Assembly (NCBI GenBank): GCA_002069885.1
Contig: MWCD01000004.1
Location: forward strand, 11,037 to 75,036
DNA length: 64,000 bases
From: a bacterium ADurb.Bin236
GTDB taxonomy: Bacteria; UBP15; UBA6099
Reading direction: 5' to 3'
Shown here: one piece after another, positions 8,556 to 27,356 of the stretch
Numbering within the stretch: the first letter of the stretch is position 1
Layout: each line of letters begins with the position of its first letter
The notes under the pieces: model-generated
The model's input: the letters and a program-made list of their open reading frames with translations, nothing else
Databases searched by the model: none
What the model was told of the DNA's origin: nothing
Position numbers and translations under genes: made by a program

Positions 8556-9440
8556 TTAACGTTTATCGAACCGTATTATAGTTTCCATTCCGTTGTGGTC
8601 GCTTATCAGCCGGCCTGAAACCAACTCGTCGAACACCCATCGCGCAGACTCTATCGTGATTTTCCAGTCCGACCCGTTCTCGTCGTAGAAGAGATGGTCC
8701 ACATGGTCCAGATGCGCGCTGGCCATTTTTAGTTTTGAATTCTGAAGGAGCCAATCGCAATCCTCTTCTCCGGGATTGCAGTTGAAATCGCCGTGGATGA
8801 TAACCGGCCGCCGCGTTCCGCCGGAAAACCGCTCTACAGCAGCCATCATCTGCTTATAGTTTTCTATCCTCGGCTTGGGACCGAAGCCCGCCTGCGCGTG
8901 CAGCGTGTACACGTCTATCTCAAGCCCTCCGGGAAGAACTGTCGTCGCCCCCATGAATCCTTTATGGCTGAAAGCGTCAACTCCGAACTGCTCTTTCCAT
9001 CTCTCGAAAACCGACCTCTGTATTTCGCCTTTTGAGAAAATGTACAATCCGCTTCCTGTCGGGGACGTCGGCGAGCCTGTCCCCATGGCCACGAAATGGT
9101 TTTTCAGCCTGCGCGGAAAAACCTCTCTCTCCGGAATGAACGCTTCCTGCAGCCCTATGACATCATAGTCTTTGATGAGCTTGGCGATGAGCGCGGCCCT
9201 TTTTTCCGTCGGAACCAGCAGGTTGCGGTCGAATGTTATGAAATCAGGAAGCATACAGACGTTGTAGGTCAGGAATTTCAAAGTGTGAGATTTCTTCGGC
9301 GACTGTTCCGCTGCTTCAGACGCCGACGCCGCCAACGGAACCAAAACAGCCATTGCCGTAAAAACAGCGGAAACAATCAAAGCAAAGCCATGTCTTTTCA
9401 GATTGGAGTTCAAGTGTCGGCAACCATCCTTTTCAACCAT
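8556..9440 (-). CDS. Secreted endonuclease/exonuclease/phosphatase (EEP, DNase I-like / sphingomyelinase-like) family protein
   Basis: There is a signal peptide, followed by YNVCMLP...GLQEAF...HGDFNCNPG...SDHNGM, which are EEP catalytic motifs. Confidence 0.7.
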   Translation of the reverse strand: MVEKDGCRHLNSNLKRHGFALIVSAVFTAMAVLVPLAASASEAAEQSPKKSHTLKFLTYNVCMLPDFITFDRNLLVPTEKRAALIAKLIKDYDVIGLQEAFIPEREVFPRRLKNHFVAMGTGSPTSPTGSGLYIFSKGEIQRSVFERWKEQFGVDAFSHKGFMGATTVLPGGLEIDVYTLHAQAGFGPKPRIENYKQMMAAVERFSGGTRRPVIIHGDFNCNPGEEDCDWLLQNSKLKMASAHLDHVDHLFYDENGSDWKITIESARWVFDELVSGRLISDHNGMETIIRFDKR

Positions 9441-9476
9441 GCGCTTCGGCGATGGCGATTTTTTTGTTATGAGCGA

Positions 9477-10673
9477 TTATTTGAAAACTTTTACAATAAT
9501 GCCCAAGGCCTCTTCTATCTGGTCTTTCGTAATTATAAGAGGCGGAGCGAATCTGATGATGTCTGGCCGGGCGTCTTTGGCCAGCAGTCCGGCGTCGAGC
9601 AACTCAAGCGATTTGTCATGAGCGACAGGTTTTTCAAGAACCACGCCGACAAGCAGGCCTTTGCCACGAACCAGAGAAACGCCGGGAAGCTTAAGCTCCC
9701 GAAGGCTGGACATGAAAAACTCTCCCATAATCGAGGAGTTCTCGACCATCTTTTCATCCCGCAGCGCGTCCATCGCGGCTATCGCCACAGCGGCGGCGAG
9801 CGGGTTGCCGCCGAACGTGCTTCCGTGCGTGCCGTGAGTAAAAACCCTCATAACGTTCTCGTTCGCGCAGACTGCGGACACCGGAAGAACGCCTCCGCCC
9901 AGAGCTTTTCCGAGCGTGACTATGTCGGGCCGGATTCCGTAATGCTCGAAGCAGAACATTTTTCCCGTGCGCCCGAGCCCAGTCTGAATCTCGTCTAGGC
10001 ACAAAAGAACGCTGCGCTTGTCGCAAATCTCCCGGACGCGGGCCAAATAATCGTCTGGAGGGACCACCACCCCGCCCTCTCCCTGTATCGGCTCAAGCAG
10101 AACGCCCGCCGTGTCCTCGGTAATCGCGGCCTCAAGAGCGGCGGCGTCCCCGAACGGGACGATGTCGATTCCGGGAAGAAGCGGGCCGAAGCTTTTCTTA
10201 GTCGTATCGCTGGTGGACATGCTGATGGCGGCGATGGTGCGGCCGTGAAAGTTGTTGGCGGCGGCGATAATTCTCGCGCGGCCATCCGGAACGCCTTTGA
10301 CCTCATACGCCCATTTGCGCATAGCCTTAAGCGCCGTCTCGACCGCTTCAGCCCCAGTGTTCATGGGCAACGCCTTCTCGAACCTTGTCAGCGCGCACAA
10401 TTTTTCGAGGAACGGCCCAAGCATGTCATTGTGAAACGCCCTAGATGTGAGGGTCGACCGCCCGGCCTGCTCTATCAGAGCCTTGACTATTTTAGGATGC
10501 CTGTGCCCGTGGCTCATCGCCGAATACGCGCTGAGCATGTCCATATACTTCCGGCCCTCCGGATCCCACACGTATACGCCTTCGCCTTTCGATATGCACA
10601 CCGGGAGTGGCTCGTAGTTTCTGGCGCACCATTTCTCCGCCAATTCCATCAGTCTTTCGCTTTCGCTGCCCAT
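9477..10673 (-). CDS. rocD: Ornithine aminotransferase (class III PLP aminotransferase)
   Basis: The OAT-type signature is SAYSAMSHGHRHPKIV, the DEIQTGLGRTG motif is present, and the PLP lysine lies in TLGKALGGG. Confidence 0.85.
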   Translation of the reverse strand: MGSESERLMELAEKWCARNYEPLPVCISKGEGVYVWDPEGRKYMDMLSAYSAMSHGHRHPKIVKALIEQAGRSTLTSRAFHNDMLGPFLEKLCALTRFEKALPMNTGAEAVETALKAMRKWAYEVKGVPDGRARIIAAANNFHGRTIAAISMSTSDTTKKSFGPLLPGIDIVPFGDAAALEAAITEDTAGVLLEPIQGEGGVVVPPDDYLARVREICDKRSVLLCLDEIQTGLGRTGKMFCFEHYGIRPDIVTLGKALGGGVLPVSAVCANENVMRVFTHGTHGSTFGGNPLAAAVAIAAMDALRDEKMVENSSIMGEFFMSSLRELKLPGVSLVRGKGLLVGVVLEKPVAHDKSLELLDAGLLAKDARPDIIRFAPPLIITKDQIEEALGIIVKVFK

Positions 10674-10805
10674 GCAAAGTTGACCCTGTCTTAAAATATT
10701 AGGTCGCGCCTACCTTCGCGCGACCCCGAATAATATACATCATCGTTGGTTTTTTTTCATCAATTCCGCGTTCCGCGGCGTTCACGGTCTATAATTTCGA
10801 TTATG

Positions 10806-12155
10806 AGCGAACCGAAAGTGATATTGAGGCGCTGCGAGACCGCCGACCCGGCGAGAATCAGAGCCATCATAGCGGAGTGTTTTGAAGAACTACAGTTTCA
10901 GCCGCGCGGGCGCACCCTCATCAAACCCAACGTCGTCACCGCAAACAGGCAATACATACATCACTCGCACACTCACCCGGCGGTGACGGAAGCTCTAGCT
11001 CATCACCTGAAAACCCGACCCGAAGTATCGCAGATTACCATCGGCGAATCCTCCGGCTTCGGCATACCCCCCGGCCTTTTCATGCATGAGGCAGGTTACG
11101 ACGCGCTCGCGCGGCGGCTCAAAGTGCGACTTGTCGATTTCAACGAGGACCGCGCGACTTGGGTGGACTTGAAGAAAGCCGTCGCCCAGAAAGGATTCCA
11201 CGTCCCCCGCTCCATCCTCGAAGCCGACACGAAAATATGGGTCCCGAAACTGAAATATCATATCTGTTGCGAATTGACGAACGCGCTGAAGCTCAACATA
11301 GGAATACTCCAGCACCGCGACCGGATGGCTGTGCACGACAACCGGCTCAACGACAAGATAGTGGATATGCTGGAAATCGGATATCCGGACTGCGTCGTAA
11401 CGGACGCGATACACATCGGGCACGGGTTCGAGAGCGCGCCTCAGGGGTTCCATCTCGGCCTGCTGCTGGTGTCAAACAATCCACTCGCCGCGGACGCTGT
11501 CGCAGGCTCCGCCCTCGGTTATAAGCCCGAAGAAATCGTTCATCTGCGCATCGCGCGCGACAGAGGCTACGGCTCCATTGACCTCAACGACATCCGGATT
11601 ACTGGCGACTATCCGCTGGATGAAATCATATCCAAGACAAAGGGGCTGACAAGCGAATATCAGGACATACTAGCGGTGGACACGCCGATAAAGTTTTATT
11701 GCGGAGACGCGCCGGAACACGAGCCGGAGAACGCTCCCTCGCCGAACTGTTCGCCGTCCGTGCGCAGGGAGTCCGACAGCGAGAACTTCTGTTACGGCGG
11801 CTGCCTCGCGGCTGTCAAAGGATGCCTCGGCACGATAGACAAAAGACGTCCCGGCTCAGTGGCGCGCGCCCGCCCCGGCGCTGTCGTCACCGGCATCTAC
11901 AAAGGCGACGTCATACATCCCGGCCAGACGGCTTTTCTCATCGGCGACTGTTCCCGCGTTGACGGCAGGCTCGAAGCGAAACGCGTCATCAGGCTCACCG
12001 GATGCCCCATCGGGGCCTCCAAGCTGCTGATAAAAATGCCGAGCGTATTCAAGATGCCATCCCCTATGAGCGACGCGCGCTCCGCAGTCCAGTTCATCTA
12101 CTTCACCCTCCGCCACGCCCTCAGAAAACTCGTCCTCAAAATCATCCCCGGCTGA
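10806..12155 (+). CDS. DUF362 domain protein with a Cys-rich C-terminal region. The track ORF starts at 10746; the Met at 10806 is the likelier start. Its last ~40 codons are repeated at 20008-20144.
   Basis: LIKPNVVTA...ITIGESSG is the DUF362 signature. The C-terminus has several CxxC motifs. The tail ...SAVQFIYFTLRHALRKLVLKIIPG* is shared with the remnant at 19989-20117. Confidence 0.6.
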   Translation, partial: SEPKVILRRCETADPARIRAIIAECFEELQFQPRGRTLIKPNVVTANRQYIHHSHTHPAVTEALAHHLKTRPEVSQITIGESSGFGIPPGLFMHEAGYDALARRLKVRLVDFNEDRATWVDLKKAVAQKGFHVPRSILEADTKIWVPKLKYHICCELTNALKLNIGILQHRDRMAVHDNRLNDKIVDMLEIGYPDCVVTDAIHIGHGFESAPQGFHLGLLLVSNNPLAADAVAGSALGYKPEEIVHLRIARDRGYGSIDLNDIRITGDYPLDEIISKTKGLTSEYQDILAVDTPIKFYCGDAPEHEPENAPSPNCSPSVRRESDSENFCYGGCLAAVKGCLGTIDKRRPGSVARARPGAVVTGIYKGDVIHPGQTAFLIGDCSRVDGRLEAKRVIRLTGCPIGASKLLIKMPSVFKMPSPMSDARSAVQFIYFTLRHALRKLVLKIIPG

Positions 12156-12182
12156 TCGAATCTTAATCTGCCGTTGTGATTT
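12045..12182 (+). repeat. Left copy of an imperfect ~135-bp direct repeat, covering the 3' end of the DUF362 gene plus ~27 bp downstream
   Basis: It aligns with 20008-20144 at roughly 75% identity. The identical cores are AAGTTCATCTA, TCCCCGGCTGA and CTGCCGTT, and the offset between copies is 7962-7963 bp. Confidence 0.65.
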
Positions 12183-12570
12183 GGGGTTAATGGATAATCG
12201 TTAGTTAATATGTCAACCCGAATTATTCATAGGCGGTTAAGAATCGTTGCCTAGACCGCATTGTCGCCGTACAAAGCTGCATCTTTGGTGCGCCTCCTTT
12301 TTTGCCGCTTGTCACTGCTCGCTACTATGATAATCGGCTGAGGAGGCTCACTTATTTAGTGGGGTTCATGAATAATTCGGGTATAATCAGGCTCACTTTA
12401 CTCATCGTTGCCAAGGTCTCCTTGGCAACGGGAAATAATGACAATGAATGCGGAGCTTTCGGCTCATCCGTTACAAAGGCGACCTTTGTAACGATGATAA
12501 ATATGCGTTGTTCATTGTGGCGGGTTCACGCGCCCGGGTGAGGTTACAAGCCCGGTGTGGGCGCGCGCGA

Positions 12571-18149: not shown

Positions 18150-19175
18150 ATGAACAACATGAAAGCGCTTGTCACTGGAGCCGATGGGCTTCTTGGAGGA
18201 AATCTCATCAGGGAAATGATAGAAAGAGGAATCGAAGCGCGGGCGATTGTGCATCCGAAAAGCGTCTCGCGCACTCTCGACGGTCTTCCGATAGAACGGA
18301 TAACCGGAGATATCCTTGATGCCGCCGGGCTGGAGGAAGCGGCGAAGGGATGCGAGGCGGTGTACCATGTCGCGGCGTCCACCGCCCTGTGGCCGCCCAA
18401 AGCTCCGATAATCACCGCCGTGAACGTGGAAGGCACGCGGAATATGCTGGACGCGGCGGTAAAAGCGGGCGTTAAGAGGTTCGTCCATGTCGGTTCCGCC
18501 AGTTCATTCGGATATGGAACAAAGGAGAGGCCCGGAGACGAGTCGACTCCTTTTAAATACGCTGATTTCGGCCTAGCCTATTTTGATTCCAAGCTGGAAG
18601 CGCAAAGAATCGCGTTGAAGCACGCCGCCGACGGCAAGCTGGACGTTGTGGTGGTGAATCCGACATTTATGATAGGCCCGTTCGATTCCGGCCCGAGTTC
18701 TGGAAAAATGATATCAAGGTTTGCCGATATGAGGCCGCCGTTCTACCCGCCGGGAGGCCGCAACTTCATACACGCGCGCGACGCGGCAAAAGGAATGCTG
18801 GCGGCGTGCGAGCGGGGGCGGACCGGGGAATGTTACCTGCTGGGCAACAGGAACATGGATATGAAGGAGTTTTTTAGCGAGGTCGCGCGCGTGGCGGGAT
18901 TCAAGCCACCCGCGATTGAGATTCCCAAAGAGATAATGATGATCGCCGGGGCCGCCGGATCGGCTATTAGCAATGTTACCGGAAAGCAGCCTGAACTATC
19001 CTATGAAATGGCCCGCAGTTCGTGTGTCGGCGCGTATTATAGCGCCGCGAAGGCGGTCAAAGAGCTTGCCCTGCCGCAGACGCCGATAGAGACGGCGGTG
19101 GAGGAAGCGTACGAATGGCTCGCCGAAAACGGGCACATCAAGAGCGCGCGAGGTCGCGCCGGAAAGAGGCGATGA
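18150..19175 (+). CDS. NAD-dependent epimerase/dehydratase (extended SDR) family protein
   Basis: MKALVTGADGLLGGNLIREM is the Rossmann GxxGxxG motif, and the catalytic YxxxK lies in ...YFDSKLEAQ... Confidence 0.8.
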   Translation: MNNMKALVTGADGLLGGNLIREMIERGIEARAIVHPKSVSRTLDGLPIERITGDILDAAGLEEAAKGCEAVYHVAASTALWPPKAPIITAVNVEGTRNMLDAAVKAGVKRFVHVGSASSFGYGTKERPGDESTPFKYADFGLAYFDSKLEAQRIALKHAADGKLDVVVVNPTFMIGPFDSGPSSGKMISRFADMRPPFYPPGGRNFIHARDAAKGMLAACERGRTGECYLLGNRNMDMKEFFSEVARVAGFKPPAIEIPKEIMMIAGAAGSAISNVTGKQPELSYEMARSSCVGAYYSAAKAVKELALPQTPIETAVEEAYEWLAENGHIKSARGRAGKRR

Positions 19176-19993
19176 GCATGGCCGCTAAACATTTCGAGAA
19201 CAAGACCGCTCTCATAACCGGGGGCAGCCGGGGGATAGGGCTTGCGGTGGCGCGCGAACTGTCGCGCAGAGGCGCCCGCTGCGCCATCGCCGCTCGCGGA
19301 GCCGAGCACCTTGAACGCGCCCGCGCCTCTCTCGCGTCAGACGGTTTCGACGTCCTCACGATTCAAGCAGACGTCGCGGATGCGGCGTCTTGCGCCGACA
19401 TGGTCTCTCGCGCCGTCTCGGAGTTCGGGCGTCTGGACATCCTTGTGAACAACGCGGGCGTCTCTATGCGCGCCACTCTCGACGAACTCGACGCCGAAGC
19501 CTGCCGCTCGATGGTGGACATCAATCTGATGGGGTGCATATATCCGACGCTCAGCGCGCTCGATCAACTCAAGAGCAACAAAGGAAGCGTCGTCTTCACG
19601 TCCAGCATAGCGGGTCTGATAGGGTTGCCGACGGCGACGATATATTGCGCGACCAAGCACGCGCTTCGCGGATTTGCGGACGCGTTGAGATGCGAAATCG
19701 GGCCTTGCGGCGCGCATGTCGGCGTCGTCTATGTCGGTTTCACCGAGAACGACCCTGAGAAGAAAGTGGTCAGCGCAGACGGCGGAGCCGTCCCGCCCGG
19801 TCCGGCGCACATGACACAGGAGCAAGTGGCGCGCGAGTTCGCCGAGCTTATCCGCCACCGCCGCTCCCGCGCCGTGCTTTCGCCAATCGGCAAATTGGCC
19901 GAGCTGGCCGGCAGGCTGTCTCCGGACATTGTAGGCGACGCCATCGTCTTCAGCCGAAAAACCAAGCTCAACGAGCGCCTCGGCATAACTTGA
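19172..19993 (+). CDS. Classical short-chain dehydrogenase/reductase
   Basis: TALITGGSRGIGLAVA, NNAGV and YCATKHAL are the SDR motifs. There is a 4-bp ATGA overlap with the upstream gene. Confidence 0.85.
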   Translation: MSMAAKHFENKTALITGGSRGIGLAVARELSRRGARCAIAARGAEHLERARASLASDGFDVLTIQADVADAASCADMVSRAVSEFGRLDILVNNAGVSMRATLDELDAEACRSMVDINLMGCIYPTLSALDQLKSNKGSVVFTSSIAGLIGLPTATIYCATKHALRGFADALRCEIGPCGAHVGVVYVGFTENDPEKKVVSADGGAVPPGPAHMTQEQVAREFAELIRHRRSRAVLSPIGKLAELAGRLSPDIVGDAIVFSRKTKLNERLGIT

Positions 19994-20117
19994 CGGCATT
20001 ACGGCGCGTTTTCAAGGTGCCTTCTCCATAAGCGAAGCCCTCTACGCCGCCAAGTTCATCTATTTCACCTTCCGCAGCGCCACCAAATTTCTTTCGTTCA
20101 GAATCGTCCCCGGCTGA
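19989..20117 (+). pseudogene. Start-less 42-codon remnant homologous to the C-terminus of the DUF362 gene (a displaced 3' gene end), forming part of the right repeat copy 20008-20144
   Basis: It translates to LDGITARFQGAFSISEALYAAKFIYFTFRSATKFLSFRIVPG*, against ...FKMPSPMSDARSAVQFIYFTLRHALRKLVLKIIPG* in DUF362. It has no ATG/GTG/TTG start. It is in the +1 frame relative to the SDR and is preceded by an in-frame TAA. Confidence 0.55.
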
Positions 20118-20330
20118 TTGAACCCAAAACTGCCGTTAGGATTTAAAAGCGATTGTTATGAGATATGTAAGGCACAGACGAATTTTCGTTGTAATTAAGA
20201 TTTTCTATTTCTTATAGTTGTTTCGTTATGTATGCGCCACAGACAAAACTATATACAGAATGGGATTTTCCGTTTGATATTTGGGAGATAAACTAATATT
20301 TTAAGAAAGCTTTTTCAGTAGCCGAAACTT

Positions 20331-20969
20331 CTATTCTTCAATGACATTGAAATTAAACGTCTTTTGCTCGTGTTCTTCTGCTGATGTCGGCTCAGCCTTG
20401 GCAATTTCATTATTTATTTCTTCCGGAATAATTCTTACAAGACCACTGATAAATACTCTGAAACTCCGAGATTTGTTAATTGAGGGATTCATGTGCTTCC
20501 CTATAGCTCGTGCGCCACTTATTTTCTGATAGTTCACAACAATTCGCTTTATTTCTTCCGCGGGTTGGTTAATGCTGTCCGGATTTCTGAATTTGGATTG
20601 ATTTTGTCTGCCTGATAAGTTCCCGATTCCCATTCCGGCTTCAACGGCCTTCAGGTCTCCAAGAAACCATGACTCAAGTTCATGACATACCACACGGACA
20701 AGAACATCTGATCTTCCACCTTCTTCACAAAGTCTTGTAAGGTTCGTTTTCACAACTTGGCAATCAGCTTGGTCCTGATCCCTCAGCACTATGAATCTGA
20801 CATCGTCCTCTCGCCACGCTCTCAGTTTTCTCGGAATCGATTTCTCAAGATCTTGTTTTCCTTCGTGAACAACATATATACAGTGAATTGACCTTGGAAC
20901 AACTCTTGGCAAAAAGCCCTTTAGAGCCTCCTTCATTGACTGTTCTTCGAGCAGAAATACAATCTTCAT
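20331..20969 (-). CDS. Small TOPRIM-like protein (DUF4276-like), candidate nuclease partner of the adjacent ATPase
   Basis: The N-terminus MKIVFLLEEQSMKEALKGFL is like the conserved-Glu region of DUF4276. An acidic DxD-type motif is VLRDQDQAD, followed by ELESWFLGD. There is a 4-bp ATGA overlap with the upstream ATPase gene, and GC content is low. Confidence 0.55.
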   Translation of the reverse strand: MKIVFLLEEQSMKEALKGFLPRVVPRSIHCIYVVHEGKQDLEKSIPRKLRAWREDDVRFIVLRDQDQADCQVVKTNLTRLCEEGGRSDVLVRVVCHELESWFLGDLKAVEAGMGIGNLSGRQNQSKFRNPDSINQPAEEIKRIVVNYQKISGARAIGKHMNPSINKSRSFRVFISGLVRIIPEEINNEIAKAEPTSAEEHEQKTFNFNVIEE

Positions 20970-22144
20970 AACTCGCTGTTTATCTCCTCAAATAGCCCCT
21001 GTTTCCATAGCGCTCCTGGCAACTCTCCTTCCGCAACTAGGTTTCTAAGCACTTCACTATCTCTAGCTCTTTGTAGAGTTGTAAATCCGTTCATTTTCCG
21101 AAGATAGAACACCTCATCTAGTCTCGTTCCATTCAGGAAATCTGGTGAATGCGTCGAAACAAACACTTGTCCGCCGCGTTCGGAATACTGCCTAAATTCT
21201 TCTGCTAATTCTTGGAGCAGTTGAGGATACAACTGGTTCTCCGGCTCTTCTACGCATAAGAGTGGGTGAGGTGATGGATCGTGTAATAGCACAAGATATG
21301 CAAACATTTTTATAGTCCCATCTGATACATACCGCGCAATGAAAGGATCTTTGAATGAGCCATCTTGGAAACGCAGCACTATTCTTCCATCAATCGTAGG
21401 CTGCGCTTCTACTTTGCTTACACCCGGCACTCTTTCTGCCATCTTCCTAAGCACTTCGTCAAATATATCTCGGTGCCGGTCATAAAGGAATTGAGAAACT
21501 AGCGCAAGGTTTTCTCCTCTTGCTGACAGATGCTCCGCATACCCTTCCTCGTGACTAGGCCGAGCTTCATGTATATGGAAATCCGAAACATGCCAGTTCT
21601 CGATTAACTTCCTGAAAGCCGTCACTACTTTGAAACGTTGAAATTGCCCAAGTCCTTTGATAGCAAGTATATCCGGCGACTCAAGCTCCTGAGGCTCACG
21701 TTGCATCTCGCTTTCAGGCATCTTGTAATCGTCCTCATTTGTTATTGCTTGGCCATGCCCCTTGCTGAATTCTAGAAACTTCCATGGTTGCCCGTGCTGG
21801 CCCCTTCTATACTTAAGAACTTCACTTGCGACCACCGGCCTGCCGGAATCCAGTCCTATCGATAAACTATATGTAACGAGAGGACCATTTACTTCACGAA
21901 ATTTAATTTCAAAACTGACTGGCCCTTCGGCATTACGACTTATCACCTCGTTGAATCCTCCACGCATAGCAAGAGCTTTGTCAACGTTGTGAGTAAGCGC
22001 ATCTCTCAAAAAACCGAACACATCGAACATCGTGCTCTTGCCTGTTCCGTTTGCTCCCACGAGAACACACATACTAGGGATGTCTGTCATATTAGCTTCT
22101 CGGAACACTCTATAGTTTCGTATACTTATTGATTCAATATGCAT
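20966..22144 (-). CDS. ABC/SMC-like AAA_21-type ATPase (OLD/AbiL/PARIS-AriA-like N-terminal ATPase without a fused nuclease)
   Basis: Walker A is VLVGANGTGKST, Walker B plus D-loop is LLCVEEPENQLYP, and the H-loop is VFVSTHSP. The gene is 392 aa and AT-rich relative to its surroundings. Confidence 0.85.
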   Translation of the reverse strand: MHIESISIRNYRVFREANMTDIPSMCVLVGANGTGKSTMFDVFGFLRDALTHNVDKALAMRGGFNEVISRNAEGPVSFEIKFREVNGPLVTYSLSIGLDSGRPVVASEVLKYRRGQHGQPWKFLEFSKGHGQAITNEDDYKMPESEMQREPQELESPDILAIKGLGQFQRFKVVTAFRKLIENWHVSDFHIHEARPSHEEGYAEHLSARGENLALVSQFLYDRHRDIFDEVLRKMAERVPGVSKVEAQPTIDGRIVLRFQDGSFKDPFIARYVSDGTIKMFAYLVLLHDPSPHPLLCVEEPENQLYPQLLQELAEEFRQYSERGGQVFVSTHSPDFLNGTRLDEVFYLRKMNGFTTLQRARDSEVLRNLVAEGELPGALWKQGLFEEINSEL

Positions 22145-22419
22145 ATCCCGCGACCTTTGTACTCAATAGAGTTTTTTTATTTTTCTAATCGATCCATTCA
22201 GTAAAACATTCCAATATCATCAATATTATACACCTTGAGGCATATATAAAAGAATGGTTTAAAAAACCTTCATCGATCCTCAGAAATCTCATTTATATTC
22301 GTAAATATTTAAGAAACCACAGGATAATAACTTTGTTATACACACCATTAAACTGTTTTTCACAATATACTGTTACGGATAGTGAGTTTCTTCGTGAGTT
22401 GTTTATTTCGTCATCTCGA

Positions 22420-22650
22420 CTACGAGGAACCTGTTGTTGCCTCTGCGCTCGACGACGAGCAGAATCTCGACTGATTCGTCGCATTTGCGGCCCTAGAAAT
22501 GTCTTTGATGATATCGCGCAGTTCGGATGGTTTCTCGACTTCTTTTCTGTCTGCTTTGATGATGATGTCGCCCTGAATAGCTCCGGCTATACTGCCGGGG
22601 CTGTTCGAAGTCACGCCCGCCCGGCATCCGCCAGCGCGCTCGCGCCGGAT
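22420..22650 (-). pseudogene. Fragment of a PDZ domain (HtrA/DegP-like C-terminal part) lacking the rest of the gene
   Basis: ...AGVTSNSPGSIAGAIQGDIIIKADRKEVEKPSELRDIIKDI... matches the second half of a PDZ domain. There is no upstream protease domain, and the fragment lies at the edge of the AT-rich insertion. Confidence 0.45.
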
Positions 22651-24641: not shown

Positions 24642-25502
24642 CTATTTCTCTTCCTCGACAGGCATCAGCAGATTGCCGACGCGGGTCATCAGATTGCCGA
24701 CCTTGATGCCATATTCGGCGGTTCCCCTGAAGGAAACAAGCTGTTGGCGGGTGGCGTCAAGAGCGCCCACCTCGCTCGACAGGACTTTTAGGGCGGCGTC
24801 GAGGTCCTTGAAATCCATGCCCACGTAAGGCCGCCTTTTGGTTTTGCCTTTCGTCGCCTTGATGTCTCCTTCGTCTATCCGCACATGCACCGCAGGCTCT
24901 TCCTGATTGACCGTCCACTCGATAATCTTTTTCCGGGCGGTTTTCGTGAGCCTGTAAATGTAGTCGTCTCCGCCGCGCGACATCTCCTGCAGGGCGAACG
25001 CCACCATGTACAGCATCATGCGGACTTTAAGCAGCTTTTCCTCTTCCGTCTTACACTTGTATTCTGGCATCAGCATCTTCATCTTCATCATCATCTTCAT
25101 AAGGAAGGTCATGAGGATAATCAGGTGAGACATCCCGGATATCTTCGGGAGTATCATCTTGCCTGTGAAGAAGCCGTTCATATCCGCGCAATTCTTGAAA
25201 GTCATCGTGATGACGGGTTTGTCATGAGTCCCCTGAACGACGGAAACGGCGCCCTTTTCGAACAGCACATAAGCGGCGGGAATGTCGTTCTTCACCTTGA
25301 ACTGAATCGCGCAGTTCCAGCCGGAAACCTTTTTCTGCAACGCTGCGTCGGAAGCCACAATTTCCTCGATGAGAGGAAGCGCGGCGGCAAGAAACGTGAC
25401 CGAACGCAAAGTCTCTGATTCCATAGGAACCGGAGGCTGCTTCTTCGCAGGCGCTCCCTCAGCGATGTCCTGTTCCACTACATTATCGTTATCTTCCGCC
25501 AT
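24642..25502 (-). CDS. SCP2 (sterol-carrier-like) domain protein with a Met/Lys-rich low-complexity segment and a C-terminal domain of unknown function
   Basis: The SCP2-like end is ...GFFTGKMILPKISGMSHLIILMTFLMKMMMKMKMLM. The start is probably the Met of MAEDNDNV at 25502. Confidence 0.45.
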   Translation of the reverse strand: MAEDNDNVVEQDIAEGAPAKKQPPVPMESETLRSVTFLAAALPLIEEIVASDAALQKKVSGWNCAIQFKVKNDIPAAYVLFEKGAVSVVQGTHDKPVITMTFKNCADMNGFFTGKMILPKISGMSHLIILMTFLMKMMMKMKMLMPEYKCKTEEEKLLKVRMMLYMVAFALQEMSRGGDDYIYRLTKTARKKIIEWTVNQEEPAVHVRIDEGDIKATKGKTKRRPYVGMDFKDLDAALKVLSSEVGALDATRQQLVSFRGTAEYGIKVGNLMTRVGNLLMPVEEEK

Positions 25503-25764
25503 ATCACGCCTCCGTTGCCTTTTTTGCGCGGAAGCTTGGAAAAAACGCATAGCTCATTTCATCCATTCCCGCGCAAGATGAAACAATACCATAAAACGCC
25601 TCTCCGAACAAGCGCAATGATTTGCCCTAATGTAATTAAGTTATCTTTACAACAATCCGTTCCATGGTTGATTGGATGTGTTTAATGATTTCAGCCAATT
25701 GCCATTAGTTGGAGGATTGAATAGAATATTGTTGAAAAACAATATTGATTTATCGGAGGACAAG

Positions 25765-26412
25765 ATGAAGAAACTGACGATTGCGCTAATTGCTCTTATT
25801 GTTTTGCCCGCGCTATGCCTCGGCAAAGCTAGAGATGAAGACGAGTTCCGGTTCTATGACGATGTGAAATATGAAGATATTAAAATAACCTCAGTCGCCC
25901 TGCTTCCGTTCAAGAACAGCGTTGGCAAGCAGACATCGCACGAAGTCGAGGACATGTTCGAAACTATGCAAATTTTCCTTCAGGCAAAAGGAATAAAGGT
26001 GATAGACGCGGCGGAGGAAGCTCGGAATCAGAAAATAGACATAGCTTTCGACGATCCGGACGCGGCCAAACTAGCGGCGATTGGAAAATCTCTCGGAACC
26101 GACGCGGTTCTGAATGGAACGATTTACAAATTCCAGACTTCCAAAAAAGGCATAGCCACAGTGGGCATAACAGGCAACCTTGTATATGTATCGAACGAAG
26201 ATTACATATACAGAGCAAAATTAGCTAGAGAAAAGAAGATAAATGCCACGAAAAAATGGATAACCGGCGTGGTAAGAGGCGAATCAAAACAGAATCGGAT
26301 GAAAGCGCTGAAGGATTGCGCGGCTGACCTTCTTAACCCGGTTTATGAAAAATTAAAACTCGGCAAGTTGACCGAAGAGGATTTGAAAAAGTTAGATAGT
26401 GAAGAAGAATAG
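25765..26412 (+). CDS. Secreted protein with a CsgG / LpoB / TolB-N-like domain
   Basis: The signal peptide is MKKLTIALIALIVLPALCLG, followed by ...VALLPFKNSVGKQ...LGTDAVLNGTIYKFQ, which is the family signature. Confidence 0.5.
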   Translation: MKKLTIALIALIVLPALCLGKARDEDEFRFYDDVKYEDIKITSVALLPFKNSVGKQTSHEVEDMFETMQIFLQAKGIKVIDAAEEARNQKIDIAFDDPDAAKLAAIGKSLGTDAVLNGTIYKFQTSKKGIATVGITGNLVYVSNEDYIYRAKLAREKKINATKKWITGVVRGESKQNRMKALKDCAADLLNPVYEKLKLGKLTEEDLKKLDSEEE

Positions 26413-26961
26413 TATTTCTTATATTATTTTCTTTATTTCGACGTAAACAGATTTTTGCTTGCTGATTCGACGATACAGTCGCCGAACCGGGGGCAATTTT
26501 CATAGCGTAGAACTGCGTCTGACTTACAGCTCTGTTTCTGCCTTTTTTTATAGATGAGTCTATAAAATAATGTAGTAGGTCAAAAGCGGCGGTTTATCGC
26601 GCTTGCTTTGCCGGGATAAATTCCTTCCCCCCTGTAACCGCCGATTATGTTATCCATATCCCAGAACAAGTGTTGCCCATAGCTCCGAAAATAAATGAAT
26701 TGCCGCAGTTTAAATTATCCCTAAATCTGGCGATAGGATACGTGCCGAGAAGGATAACCAGATGAGCAAAATGTCGAAACAGATGAAAAGAGGGTTTTTA
26801 TCGATAATTAATTTTTAGATGATTTGACACCAATACGCTTAAAGCCATAGATATTTTAAGATAAACGGCGTATTATTTAATAATAATCATTATTAACGCT
26901 ATAATACGAATTAAACGCTGTGTAAAAAACATCAGCAGGAATTATTGGGAATTTCAGTGGC

Positions 26962-27017
26962 TTGACAAATTTTTGAATTGATATAGAATATTAGCGCTTG
27001 CACGGATAGAGTGCTAA
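26962..27017 (+). promoter_or_regulatory. Sigma-70-type promoter overlapping a CIRCE (HrcA operator) inverted repeat upstream of groES
   Basis: TTGACA (26962-26967), a 16-nt spacer, TAGAAT (26984-26989). The CIRCE is TTAGCGCTT-N9-GAGTGCTAA at 26991-27017, against the consensus TTAGCACTC-N9-GAGTGCTAA. Confidence 0.8.
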
Positions 27018-27059
27018 ACAAATTGACGCTCAGTGGCAGCGGAAAGGAGGAAAGATATT

Positions 27060-27356
27060 ATGAGAATAGAGCCATTAGGAGACCGCGTGGTTCTGAAGCG
27101 CCTCGATGTGACCGAGGAGAAGACAGCAGGAGGGATCGTGCTGCCTGACACGGCAAAAGAGAAACCGCAAGAGGCGGAAGTGGTGGCAGTCGGACCGGGA
27201 AAGCGGGATGAGGACGGGAAGAGAATAGCCCTCGACCTGAAAGTCGGAGACGTCGTCATCATGCAAAAATGGGGCGGCACCGAATTCAAGCTTGACGGCA
27301 AGGAATACATCATCGTCAGCGAAGACGACGTTCTGGCAAAAGTAAAGAAAAAATAA
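27060..27356 (+). CDS. groES: Co-chaperonin GroES (the real start is the Met at 27060, after the GGAGG RBS)
   Basis: [14 protein letters not shown]...[24 protein letters not shown]. Confidence 0.95.

Follow-up and report, generated by a model that had tools for sequence, protein, structure and literature searches.

A solitary HEC-01 gene pair with predicted ABC ATPase and TOPRIM nuclease subunits in an AT-rich islet of bacterium ADurb.Bin236

ATPase–TOPRIM systems and the identity of the pair

[quoted passage not shown] DUF4276 is among the Pfam domains annotating a tree of AAA15/21 defence ATPases (PMC11464382, Fig. 6c) and was explicitly assigned to the Toprim superfamily in 2025 (PMC12065111). 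In published plaque assays, HEC-01 has given one negative and one positive result: an Hma-derived representative, tested alone in E. coli, failed to protect against any of the phages used (bioRxiv 10.1101/2024.01.29.577857), and another HEC-01 cluster, also cloned alone, protected E. coli B from at least one of T7, T5, and T4 (PMC12881386). Among related systems, ATPase and TOPRIM domains are fused in the OLD family (class 1 P2 Old; class 2 BpOLD and TsOLD; Gabija GajA), variants of the three-gene Menshen system (NsnA-NsnB-NsnC) and AbiL pair an ABC ATPase with a Toprim-superfamily effector that is either DUF4276 or RloB (PMC12065111), and in MADS a related ATPase, Mad3, occurs with the DUF4276 homologue Mad4 (PMC12065111).

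Here, we examine two adjacent minus-strand genes in a window of 64,000 nucleotides, this being the whole stretch of DNA analysed, from bacterium ADurb.Bin236:

20966..22144, minus strand: ABC ATPase gene, 392 aa; ATPase subunit with a head of SMC/Rad50 type, no long coiled coil, and a full nucleotide-binding motif set; predicted sensor/regulator of the nuclease
20331..20969, minus strand: DUF4276/TOPRIM subunit gene, 212 aa; predicted metal-dependent nuclease effector

The ATPase matches the PADLOC HEC-01 model PDLC04144 over nearly its whole length, residues 1-389 of 392 aligning with profile positions 1-393 of 395 (E 1.3e-190, 631.6 bits), as well as nine more HEC-01 ATPase models in PADLOC, and the small protein matches the HEC-01 model PDLC04143 over its full length (E 9.7e-72, 238.6 bits). 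Because both proteins match HEC-01 models in full, with DUF4276 (Pfam PF14103) scoring 65 bits against a cut-off of 30.2, these profile matches place the pair in an already catalogued candidate antiphage family rather than in a new kind of system. The Pfam result bears out the first-pass annotation of this DNA in calling the small protein DUF4276-like, and the end-to-end HEC-01 matches overturn its suggestion that the pair may represent a distinct, undescribed family. The same two proteins, in the same order and with the same domains, make up HEC-01 and the pair studied here. Unlike HEC-01 as it was discovered, the present copy lies outside any Hma system, alone among housekeeping genes, and its small protein differs from that of most relatives by an extra C-terminal tail of about 30 residues. 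Run in the usual way, PADLOC would assign the pair to HEC-01, which is routine in itself; what is new is the strict pairing of the two genes, the solitary islet in which they lie, its absence from one close relative, and the contrast in identity between module and flanks in another, as set out below.

Comparison with the other ATPase–TOPRIM systems led us to reject each as a home for the pair. For PARIS, the effector here is DUF4276 and not DUF4435, and the small protein matched neither AriB/DUF4435 nor RloB/AbiLii models in profile searches, in agreement with the initial impression that it resembled neither AriB nor RloB. The ATPase does match AriA models (4.1e-29 and 9.4e-22), essentially through its AAA_21/AAA_15 domains alone and with the HEC-01 models some 160 orders of magnitude better. 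PARIS is also often phage- or satellite-borne (PMC11464382), whereas no phage-borne homologues of the present pair were found. A single-chain OLD or GajA nuclease was rejected because ATPase and TOPRIM are encoded by separate ORFs, each with its own start and stop, as they are in 79 loci; sequence identity to OLD-family nucleases is only 13–17%, and the pair lacks the UvrD/GajB-type helicase partner of Gabija. The absence of an RloB or AbiLii match in the small protein likewise excludes AbiL. Menshen was rejected since the insert holds two genes rather than three, NsnA and the N-terminal domain of NsnC both being absent; the ATPase matches NsnB weakly (7.3e-23) and AbiLi at 6.2e-27. Finally, matches to MADS are weak (mad3, 9.3e-22 for the ATPase; mad4, 7.5e-5 for the small protein) and were rejected at the NCBIfam equivalog cut-offs (MAD3, 107.4 bits against 420; MAD4, 18.3 against 160), and no methyltransferase or other MAD gene was found among 50 ORFs of the window. 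Thus, of the earlier description of an uncharacterised split system of OLD/PARIS/AbiL type, the split OLD-like organization stands, membership of PARIS or AbiL does not, and the family has already been catalogued and phage-tested.

Predicted subunits and a proposed mechanism

Pfam profile search assigns the ATPase to AAA_21/AAA_15, and its nucleotide-binding motifs, comprising Walker A (G30-x-N-G-x-G-K-x-T38), a signature-like S274-D-G-T, Walker B (ending E299-E300-P-E), and the H-loop H332, are invariant across 33 homologues, so the Walker A, Walker B, H-loop, and domain assignments made on first reading are all retained. Its fold is of the ABC/SMC-Rad50 kind, near the defence ATPases PtuA, AriA, GajA, and OLD, and comparison of its sequence with the PDB returned marginal matches only, to PtuA and a retron ATPase. 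From the invariant ABC motifs and this fold, the ATPase subunit is predicted to be active.

The structural model of the small protein is of high confidence, and two independent structure searches returned the TOPRIM C-terminal region of OLD as the best match, with 157 of 204 residues of the BpOLD region aligning to the small protein, metal site included. Neither the single sequence nor a 35-sequence profile gave a meaningful match to any PDB chain, and the link to TOPRIM is therefore visible at the level of fold only. As in the OLD family, a TOPRIM domain and a helical C-terminal region carry conserved acidic metal ligands; the acidic motifs E8/E9, D64-x-D66, and E97/E99 are kept in 35 close homologues, and across 131 diverse relatives D64 and E99 are conserved at 100% and D66 at 97%, with E8, D64, D66, E99, and D131 at least at 89–100%. 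Candidate catalytic residues are E8 (E9), D64, D66, E97/E99, D105, and D131. The C-terminal tail of about 30 residues is lineage-specific, modelled with low confidence, and missing in most relatives. Taken as modelled, the small protein has a TOPRIM fold of OLD type and is predicted to be a metal-dependent nuclease, and the glutamate plus DxD layout first read from its N-terminus is consistent with both the best fold match and the residue set conserved among its relatives.

The ORF check found 4 nt (ATGA) common to the two genes, confirming exactly the coordinates, lengths, and overlap first proposed. As the genes are translationally coupled, the subunits would be made together and would probably form one complex. 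The ATPase would form an ATP-bound dimer by way of its Walker A and signature motifs, as expected from ABC-ATPase chemistry, and could serve as a sensor or switch that restrains the nuclease until a cue from phage or other foreign DNA licenses it to cut nucleic acid. By analogy with OLD and GajA, the closest folds, the target would most likely be DNA, and less likely tRNA as for PARIS AriB; cutting would then destroy the invader or abort the infection. We think it probable that the pair is a self-contained, split OLD-like HEC-01 operon, consisting of an ABC ATPase sensor and a DUF4276 TOPRIM nuclease, carried on a recently inserted cassette.

An AT-rich cassette at a strain-variable junction

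The pair forms a solitary AT-rich islet of 2.3–2.4 kb among housekeeping genes, flanked by an SDR gene and a rubrerythrin gene. The parts of the islet outside the two coding sequences, and the ORF at its edge, are as follows:

19994..20330, minus strand: 3' non-coding end of the module, following the DUF4276 gene over 337 bp with GC 0.40; left boundary directly after the SDR stop codon
22145..22402, minus strand: AT-rich 5' leader of the operon with its presumed promoter, GC 0.30; right boundary between 22325 and 22402
22420..22614, minus strand: truncated PDZ-domain ORF, 64 aa, with a weak PDZ_6 match (E 4.6e-4); chromosomal, abutting the insert and marking the junction, outside the system

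Base composition sets the islet apart, with a GC content of 0.418 for the small-protein gene and 0.452 for the ATPase gene, GC3 values of 0.38 and 0.41 for the pair against 0.61–0.74 in adjoining genes, and a GC minimum for the window (0.43 against a mean of 0.534, sd 0.027) in the 2.65-kb stretch that holds the pair. The spacers are AT-rich as well (GC 0.40 at 19994-20330 and 0.30 at 22145-22400). These values agree with the roughly 40–45% GC and AT-rich spacers estimated by eye in the first-pass annotation, but the flanks, put there at about 60% GC, are in fact non-uniform at about 50–63%, with a window mean of 53%.

Presence or absence of the module among near-identical genomes defines the ends of the cassette. 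It is missing, with sharp breakpoints, from a relative about 95% identical (L081), whose homology to the window ends at 19993 and restarts at 22403; the equivalent junction there carries a PemK/MazF toxin gene, and the PDZ ORF is a full 96 aa (PDZ_2, 1e-10), with DNA 82% identical to window positions 22403-22607. A second relative (L001) carries the module at 98–99.6% identity, compared with 86–95% in the flanks: the 3' non-coding end is 97.9% identical and the adjacent SDR gene 85.8%, and on the other side homology reaches 22325 at 98.3%. Recent horizontal acquisition, suggested at first from composition and spacers, is strengthened by the low GC and GC3, the absence from L081, and the contrast between module and flank identity with L001.

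The 3' non-coding end holds no gene remnant, and neither non-coding end matched any of the other 79 loci by blastx or blastn. No terminal inverted or direct repeats were found at the module ends, only two-copy matches of 11–20 nt at chance level, and since no tRNA gene or Rfam family occurs anywhere in the 64-kb window, there is neither a tRNA-type integration site nor an associated RNA. A simple promoter and terminator scan gave no sigma-70-like minus-strand promoter upstream of the ATPase, and its sites were no more frequent than in shuffled sequence; the operon promoter presumably lies within 22145..22402. At the DNA level the nearest other module reaches only about 67% identity, and a donor could therefore not be named. 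The best explanation is recent entry of the cassette, which has no integrase of its own, through recombination at a junction that lies between housekeeping genes and varies among strains.

It is very improbable that the pair is a housekeeping module for DNA repair or maintenance, akin to RecF/RecR (ABC ATPase and TOPRIM) or Rad50/Mre11. Such a role would sit poorly with presence/absence polymorphism between genomes of about 95% identity, foreign composition, and patchy spread over phyla in unrelated contexts; moreover, the catalytic acidic residues are conserved, unlike in the non-catalytic RecR, and among TOPRIM proteins OLD nucleases, rather than RecR, give the best match.

Family distribution and alternative roles

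The family is large, with 1315 clusters at 50% identity and at least 591 species genomes, and the pairing is strict: across many phyla, the ATPase gene lies directly upstream of the small-protein gene in 79 of 80 loci, the two overlapping in 74 of 79 (by 4 nt in 66 and by 1 nt in 8), with no third conserved gene found around the pair. In raw counts with no background rate, from neighbour genes called by a crude longest-ORF rule, immediate defence neighbours elsewhere include HmaB (7 of 65 loci), HmaC (4 of 68), PglX (3), and type I methyltransferases (2), with single cases of PglZ, HamA, GajB, DarG, DRT, DrmD, and HEC-02. On the Synechocystis plasmid pSYSM, the pair, WP_011153560/WP_011153561, lies among HNH, MNT/HEPN, and RelE/HigA genes and a dnd-associated methylase. 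No other defence gene, Hma included, was found in the window, and in many loci the pair adjoins housekeeping genes, for which reason association with defence islands is only partial. Checking context across homologues, as proposed in the first-pass annotation, upholds a conserved two-gene unit and lends partial support to its link with defence genes. In Methylococcales, the pair is found repeatedly inside the prfB-lysS translation operon.

These contexts bear on whether the unit acts alone. An accessory effector that needs a methylation-based system (of Hma, MADS, BREX, or R-M type), leaving the solitary copy here orphaned and nearly or wholly inactive, would fit the discovery of HEC-01 inside Hma systems and the failure of the Hma-derived copy to protect by itself (both bioRxiv 10.1101/2024.01.29.577857), the prominence of HmaB/HmaC, PglX/PglZ, and type I/II methylases as the commonest defence neighbours, and the weak, sub-threshold Mad3 and Mad4 matches. 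We nevertheless consider such dependence distinctly unlikely, as in most of the 79 loci no gene of this kind directly adjoins the pair, the solitary cassette retains intact ORFs and all catalytic residues, its near-identical copy in a second genome (L001) argues for stand-alone function, and an HEC-01 cluster was protective in E. coli B when cloned on its own (PMC12881386). That HEC-01 exists also as a free-standing, recently transferred cassette outside Hma or R-M systems bears on the same question.

A selfish addiction module of toxin–antitoxin type, in which the ATPase restrains a nuclease toxin and the unit persists by post-segregational killing or as a mobile passenger with no dedicated antiphage role, is also unlikely, if a little less so. 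The solitary, mobile nature of the cassette here, the PemK/MazF toxin gene at the equivalent junction in L081, the RelE/HigA and MNT/HEPN modules beside the pSYSM pair, the Pfam name of AAA_21 ('putative AbiEii toxin, Type IV TA system'), and the negative phage test (bioRxiv 10.1101/2024.01.29.577857) are all compatible with addiction. Weighing on the other side are the phage protection given by one HEC-01 representative (PMC12881386), the role of the same architecture in phage defence in PARIS, Gabija, OLD, and retron-associated ATPase/TOPRIM systems, and the recurring fraction of loci within Hma, BREX-like, and R-M systems; only seven plasmid records carry the pair, few for a plasmid-stabilisation module. 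A self-contained, defence-related operon remains our preferred reading.

More speculatively, and with little expectation that it will prove correct, DUF4276 systems could form, independently of PARIS, a second lineage of TOPRIM nucleases under ABC-ATPase control that strike the translation apparatus (for example, tRNA) instead of DNA and may spread through recombination at variable junctions as minimal integrase-free cassettes; a translation target is hinted at only by fold resemblance to AriB and by the placement in Methylococcales. For this large family, the homologous pair on pSYSM of Synechocystis PCC 6803 offers a genetically tractable native host.

The gene pair and its family

Both open reading frames lie exactly where the first-pass annotation had placed them and share a 4-base overlap (ATGA):

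20966..22144, minus strand: ABC ATPase gene, 392 aa
20331..20969, minus strand: small-protein (DUF4276) gene, 212 aa

The region of the pair is compositionally foreign. GC content is 0.452 in the ATPase gene and 0.418 in the small-protein gene, with third-position GC of 0.41 and 0.38 compared to 0.61-0.74 in adjoining genes, and the 2.65 kb around the pair has the lowest GC for that size in all 64 kb of the window (0.43; mean 0.534, sd 0.027). The non-coding spacers are AT-rich as well (0.40 at 19994-20330 and 0.30 at 22145-22400), confirming the low GC noted earlier for genes and spacers. The contrast with the flanks also holds, although the earlier figure of ~60% GC for these is a little high, as the window averages 53%.

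Using PADLOC-DB v2.0.0 models and NCBIfam for family assignment, we find that both proteins match models of HEC-01 (Hma-embedded candidate 01) over their whole length, the ATPase matching PDLC04144 (E 1.3e-190, 631.6 bits) and the small protein PDLC04143 (E 9.7e-72, 238.6 bits). HEC-01 has been described as a TOPRIM protein-associated ABC ATPase embedded in Hma systems, with a metal site that aligns to BpOLD, and protected against none of the phages in that study (bioRxiv 10.1101/2024.01.29.577857); a cold-seep survey reports that one HEC-01 cluster cloned into E. coli B protected against one or more of T7, T5 and T4 (PMC12881386). The Toprim superfamily explicitly includes DUF4276, with Mad4 as a homologue (PMC12065111), and DUF4276 is among the Pfam domains annotating the AAA15/21 defence-ATPase tree in Fig. 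6c of the PARIS paper (PMC11464382). No mechanism for HEC-01 was found in the literature searched. The two-gene ATPase and TOPRIM architecture recognized at first reading is upheld; the suggestion of a possibly undescribed family is not supported, given the full-length PADLOC matches and the published HEC-01 and DUF4276 descriptions. The cassette is a further member of a known candidate family, already in PADLOC and in print.

Models for other ATPase-based defence systems (AriA, AbiLi, NsnB, mad3, Old and GajA) score at least 160 orders of magnitude worse than HEC-01, and the NCBIfam matches to MADS are sub-threshold (MADS3, 107 vs 420 bits; MADS4, 18 vs 160). Neither the AriB nor the AbiLii/RloB model in PADLOC matches the small protein, in keeping with the earlier impression that it resembles neither. 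The HEC-01 A and B labels are inconsistent in PADLOC-DB v2.0.0, which could confuse automated annotation: HEC-01B is the name of the best ATPase model and HEC-01A that of the best DUF4276 model, whereas A denotes the ATPase and B denotes DUF4276 in all other HEC-01 models (PDLC04175-04210).

The small-protein family is large, with 1315 clusters at 50% identity (E<=1e-3). No fewer than 591 species-representative genomes carry it, from Cyanobacteria, Desulfobacterota, Firmicutes, Gammaproteobacteria, Acidobacteriota, Planctomycetota, Chlorobi and other groups. Of the 80 best loci, 79 have a co-directional gene for an ATPase homologue (58-76% identical) immediately upstream; the remaining locus is truncated by its contig end. 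Stop and start codons overlap by 4 nt at 66 of these 79 loci and by 1 nt at another 8, making translational coupling a family trait. Pairing is thus obligate and the genes are coupled, with no conserved third gene: even the most frequent neighbour families are lineage-specific and occur at only 7-9 of 65-68 loci. A search of 50,697 phage records gave no match to the family, and only 7 plasmid records carry it. That this coupled pair is a toxin-antitoxin-like selfish module seems unlikely to us.

The two subunits

The ATPase exceeds Pfam thresholds for AAA_21 (1e-30) and AAA_15 (7.7e-20), and its ABC nucleotide-binding site is intact, with all ABC-ATPase motifs invariant among 33 homologues of 66-76% identity:

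G30..K36..T38: Walker A
Q167: Q loop
S274-D-G-T: signature-like motif
E299-E300: Walker B
H332: H-loop histidine

Defence ATPases ranked close behind when the ATPase was compared, namely the retron Ec83 ATPase (17.2), the retron Eco8 OLD (17.0) and PtuA (16.6), followed by AriA (15.9), GajA (15.3) and Thermus OLD (15.0). The model has only a short helical insert at the place of the SMC coiled coil, and confidence is low in this part (residues 190-210 and 263-272).

Pfam DUF4276 covers the small protein nearly end to end (65 bits, cut-off 30.2), bearing out the earlier DUF4276-like call, while searches by sequence, single and as a profile, detected no relative among solved structures. Its predicted structure is confident (pLDDT 92.6, pTM 0.84) and places helices after a core of beta-alpha repeats. 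D64 and E99 are invariant (100%) across 131 diverse members of the family, in which D66 is conserved at 97% and D131 at 95%; E8 is kept in 89%, the remainder being N-terminal gaps. The acidic residues singled out in the first-pass annotation are these conserved ones, and its TOPRIM reading, with conserved acidic ligands, is supported both by the predicted fold and by conservation. The possibility that the ATPase and TOPRIM protein constitute a RecF/RecR-like repair pair strikes us as very remote.

The same 131 relatives also conserve C70 (97%), just past the DxD, C95 (94%), just before E97-x-E99, and C81 (79%), along with K74 (95%) and R92 (94%), for which structural, metal-binding or redox roles are conceivable. 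An acidic C-terminal tail of about 30 residues (residues ~183-212, window 20331-20423; pLDDT 62-70) is absent from nearly all homologues, which are typically 182-190 aa long; only one, P0002, carries a comparably long tail.

Recent acquisition at a variable junction

Recent horizontal acquisition, proposed earlier, is borne out by two relatives. The metagenome contig L081, from a close relative, matches the window at ~95% nucleotide identity across the genes for the glycyl-radical enzyme, TetR regulator, epimerase and SDR but has neither gene of the pair; homology ends with the SDR stop codon, whose final base is window 19993, and restarts at 22403. In L001, a candidate-phylum MAG (bacterium UBP15_UBA6099), the pair occupies the same SDR-side junction and divergence from the window begins past 22325. 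DNA identity to L001 is 97.9-99.6% in the module (19994-22325), as opposed to 85.8% for SDR, 87.0% for epimerase, 94.4% for TetR and 95.2% for the glycyl-radical enzyme, so the module was shared far more recently than the surrounding chromosome. Identity falls to 77-89% at window 18800-19993 (epimerase 3' half and SDR), compared with 94-95% a few kb away and 98-100% within the module, which points to either a recombination tract or raised divergence next to the point of insertion.

The insert is ~2.33-2.41 kb, the two genes with their AT-rich ends making up its whole content. Its ends bear no integrase, tRNA gene, terminal repeat or gene remnant, so it most likely arrived through recombination, homologous or illegitimate, at a variable junction. 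In L081, the junction is filled by a different 5.7-kb segment containing, in order, a rearranged block also found at window 8556-12153, an uncharacterized ORF of 151 aa, a toxin gene of the PemK/MazF type and a full-length PDZ ORF of 96 aa, of which a 64-aa remnant remains at window 22420-22614. The equivalent of window 19994-22402 is L081 10789-12504, with these small ORFs:

11008-11463: 151-aa ORF
11652-12020: PemK/MazF-type toxin gene
12017-12241: 74-aa ORF overlapping the toxin start, which may be an antitoxin

The same junction therefore carries different small mobile cassettes, strain by strain. What remains of interest is the mechanism of HEC-01 and its travel as a free-standing cassette, for which the evidence here is clean.

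The rearranged 3.6-kb block (Exo_endo_phos, class III aminotransferase and DUF362 genes; window 8556-12153, L081 7189-10786, 95% identity) is on the upstream side of the glycyl-radical cluster in the window and on the downstream side of the SDR gene in L081, reflecting either a genome rearrangement adjoining the insertion site or an artefact of assembly. Such artefacts could account for part of the larger rearrangements, since the sequences come from metagenome assemblies; the identity contrast with L001 is independent of them. A second AT-rich patch at window 25400-27200 (GC 0.36-0.47) may be another acquired segment, and its 246-aa ORF (25672-26412, GC3 0.48) has no Pfam match.

Neighbours and proposed activity

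Association with defence genes is partial. Immediately upstream, the defence genes in 65 loci are HmaB methylase (7), PglX (3) and type I methylases (2), and immediately downstream, HmaC occurs in 4 of 68 loci, with single cases of PglZ, HamA, GajB, DarG, DRT reverse transcriptase, DrmD, HEC-02 and SngC, all counts being approximate because neighbours were called by a simple longest-ORF rule. Defence genes are thus recurrent neighbours of the homologues, and at many other loci the neighbours are housekeeping genes. In the window, the flanking genes encode a glycyl-radical enzyme, TetR regulator, epimerase, SDR, rubrerythrin, multihaem cytochrome and SCP2-like protein, and a PADLOC search of 50 ORFs found no other defence genes, giving only generic hits to one sigma-54-activator-type protein. 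With methylases among the neighbours elsewhere and none of these systems here, the pair could be an accessory effector dependent on a methylation system and orphaned in this genome, which we consider quite unlikely.

We favor, as the probable reading by analogy, an ATPase-controlled, cue-triggered TOPRIM nuclease defence pair. Its computed bases are family membership, the nucleotide site, the TOPRIM fold and ligands, pairing and coupling, mobility, and the partial defence association; the literature adds two phage tests of other HEC-01 members, one positive and the other negative. By analogy with OLD, Gabija and PARIS, the ATPase would dimerize on ATP in complex with the nuclease, and sensing of a phage-derived cue by the ATPase would license metal-dependent cleavage. 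The target would more probably be DNA, given that the nearest fold is that of the OLD C-terminal region, and could be tRNA, as for PARIS AriB, which cleaves tRNA-Lys.

In Methylococcales, the pair interrupts what is ordinarily the prfB-lysS operon, in the same orientation as its neighbours: a prfB-like release-factor gene (RF-1/PCRF domains) on one side and a gene resembling class II lysyl-tRNA synthetase on the other (L041 7723-12301; L051, L052, L056, L057, L068, L080 and L043; L031, lysS side only). Given 87-99% identity of the flanking genes across these loci, the placements probably represent one lineage-specific insertion.

Plasmid pSYSM of Synechocystis PCC 6803 (L161 5808-7549) carries a pair annotated as 'AAA family ATPase' (WP_011153560) and 'DUF4276 family protein' (WP_011153561), the latter a 46% identical homologue of the small protein. 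Around this homologous pair are genes for HNH endonucleases, MNT/HEPN, RelE/HigA and a phosphorothioation-associated methylase, a group of restriction-type and toxin-antitoxin genes, and the plasmid's host is a model cyanobacterium that is genetically tractable.
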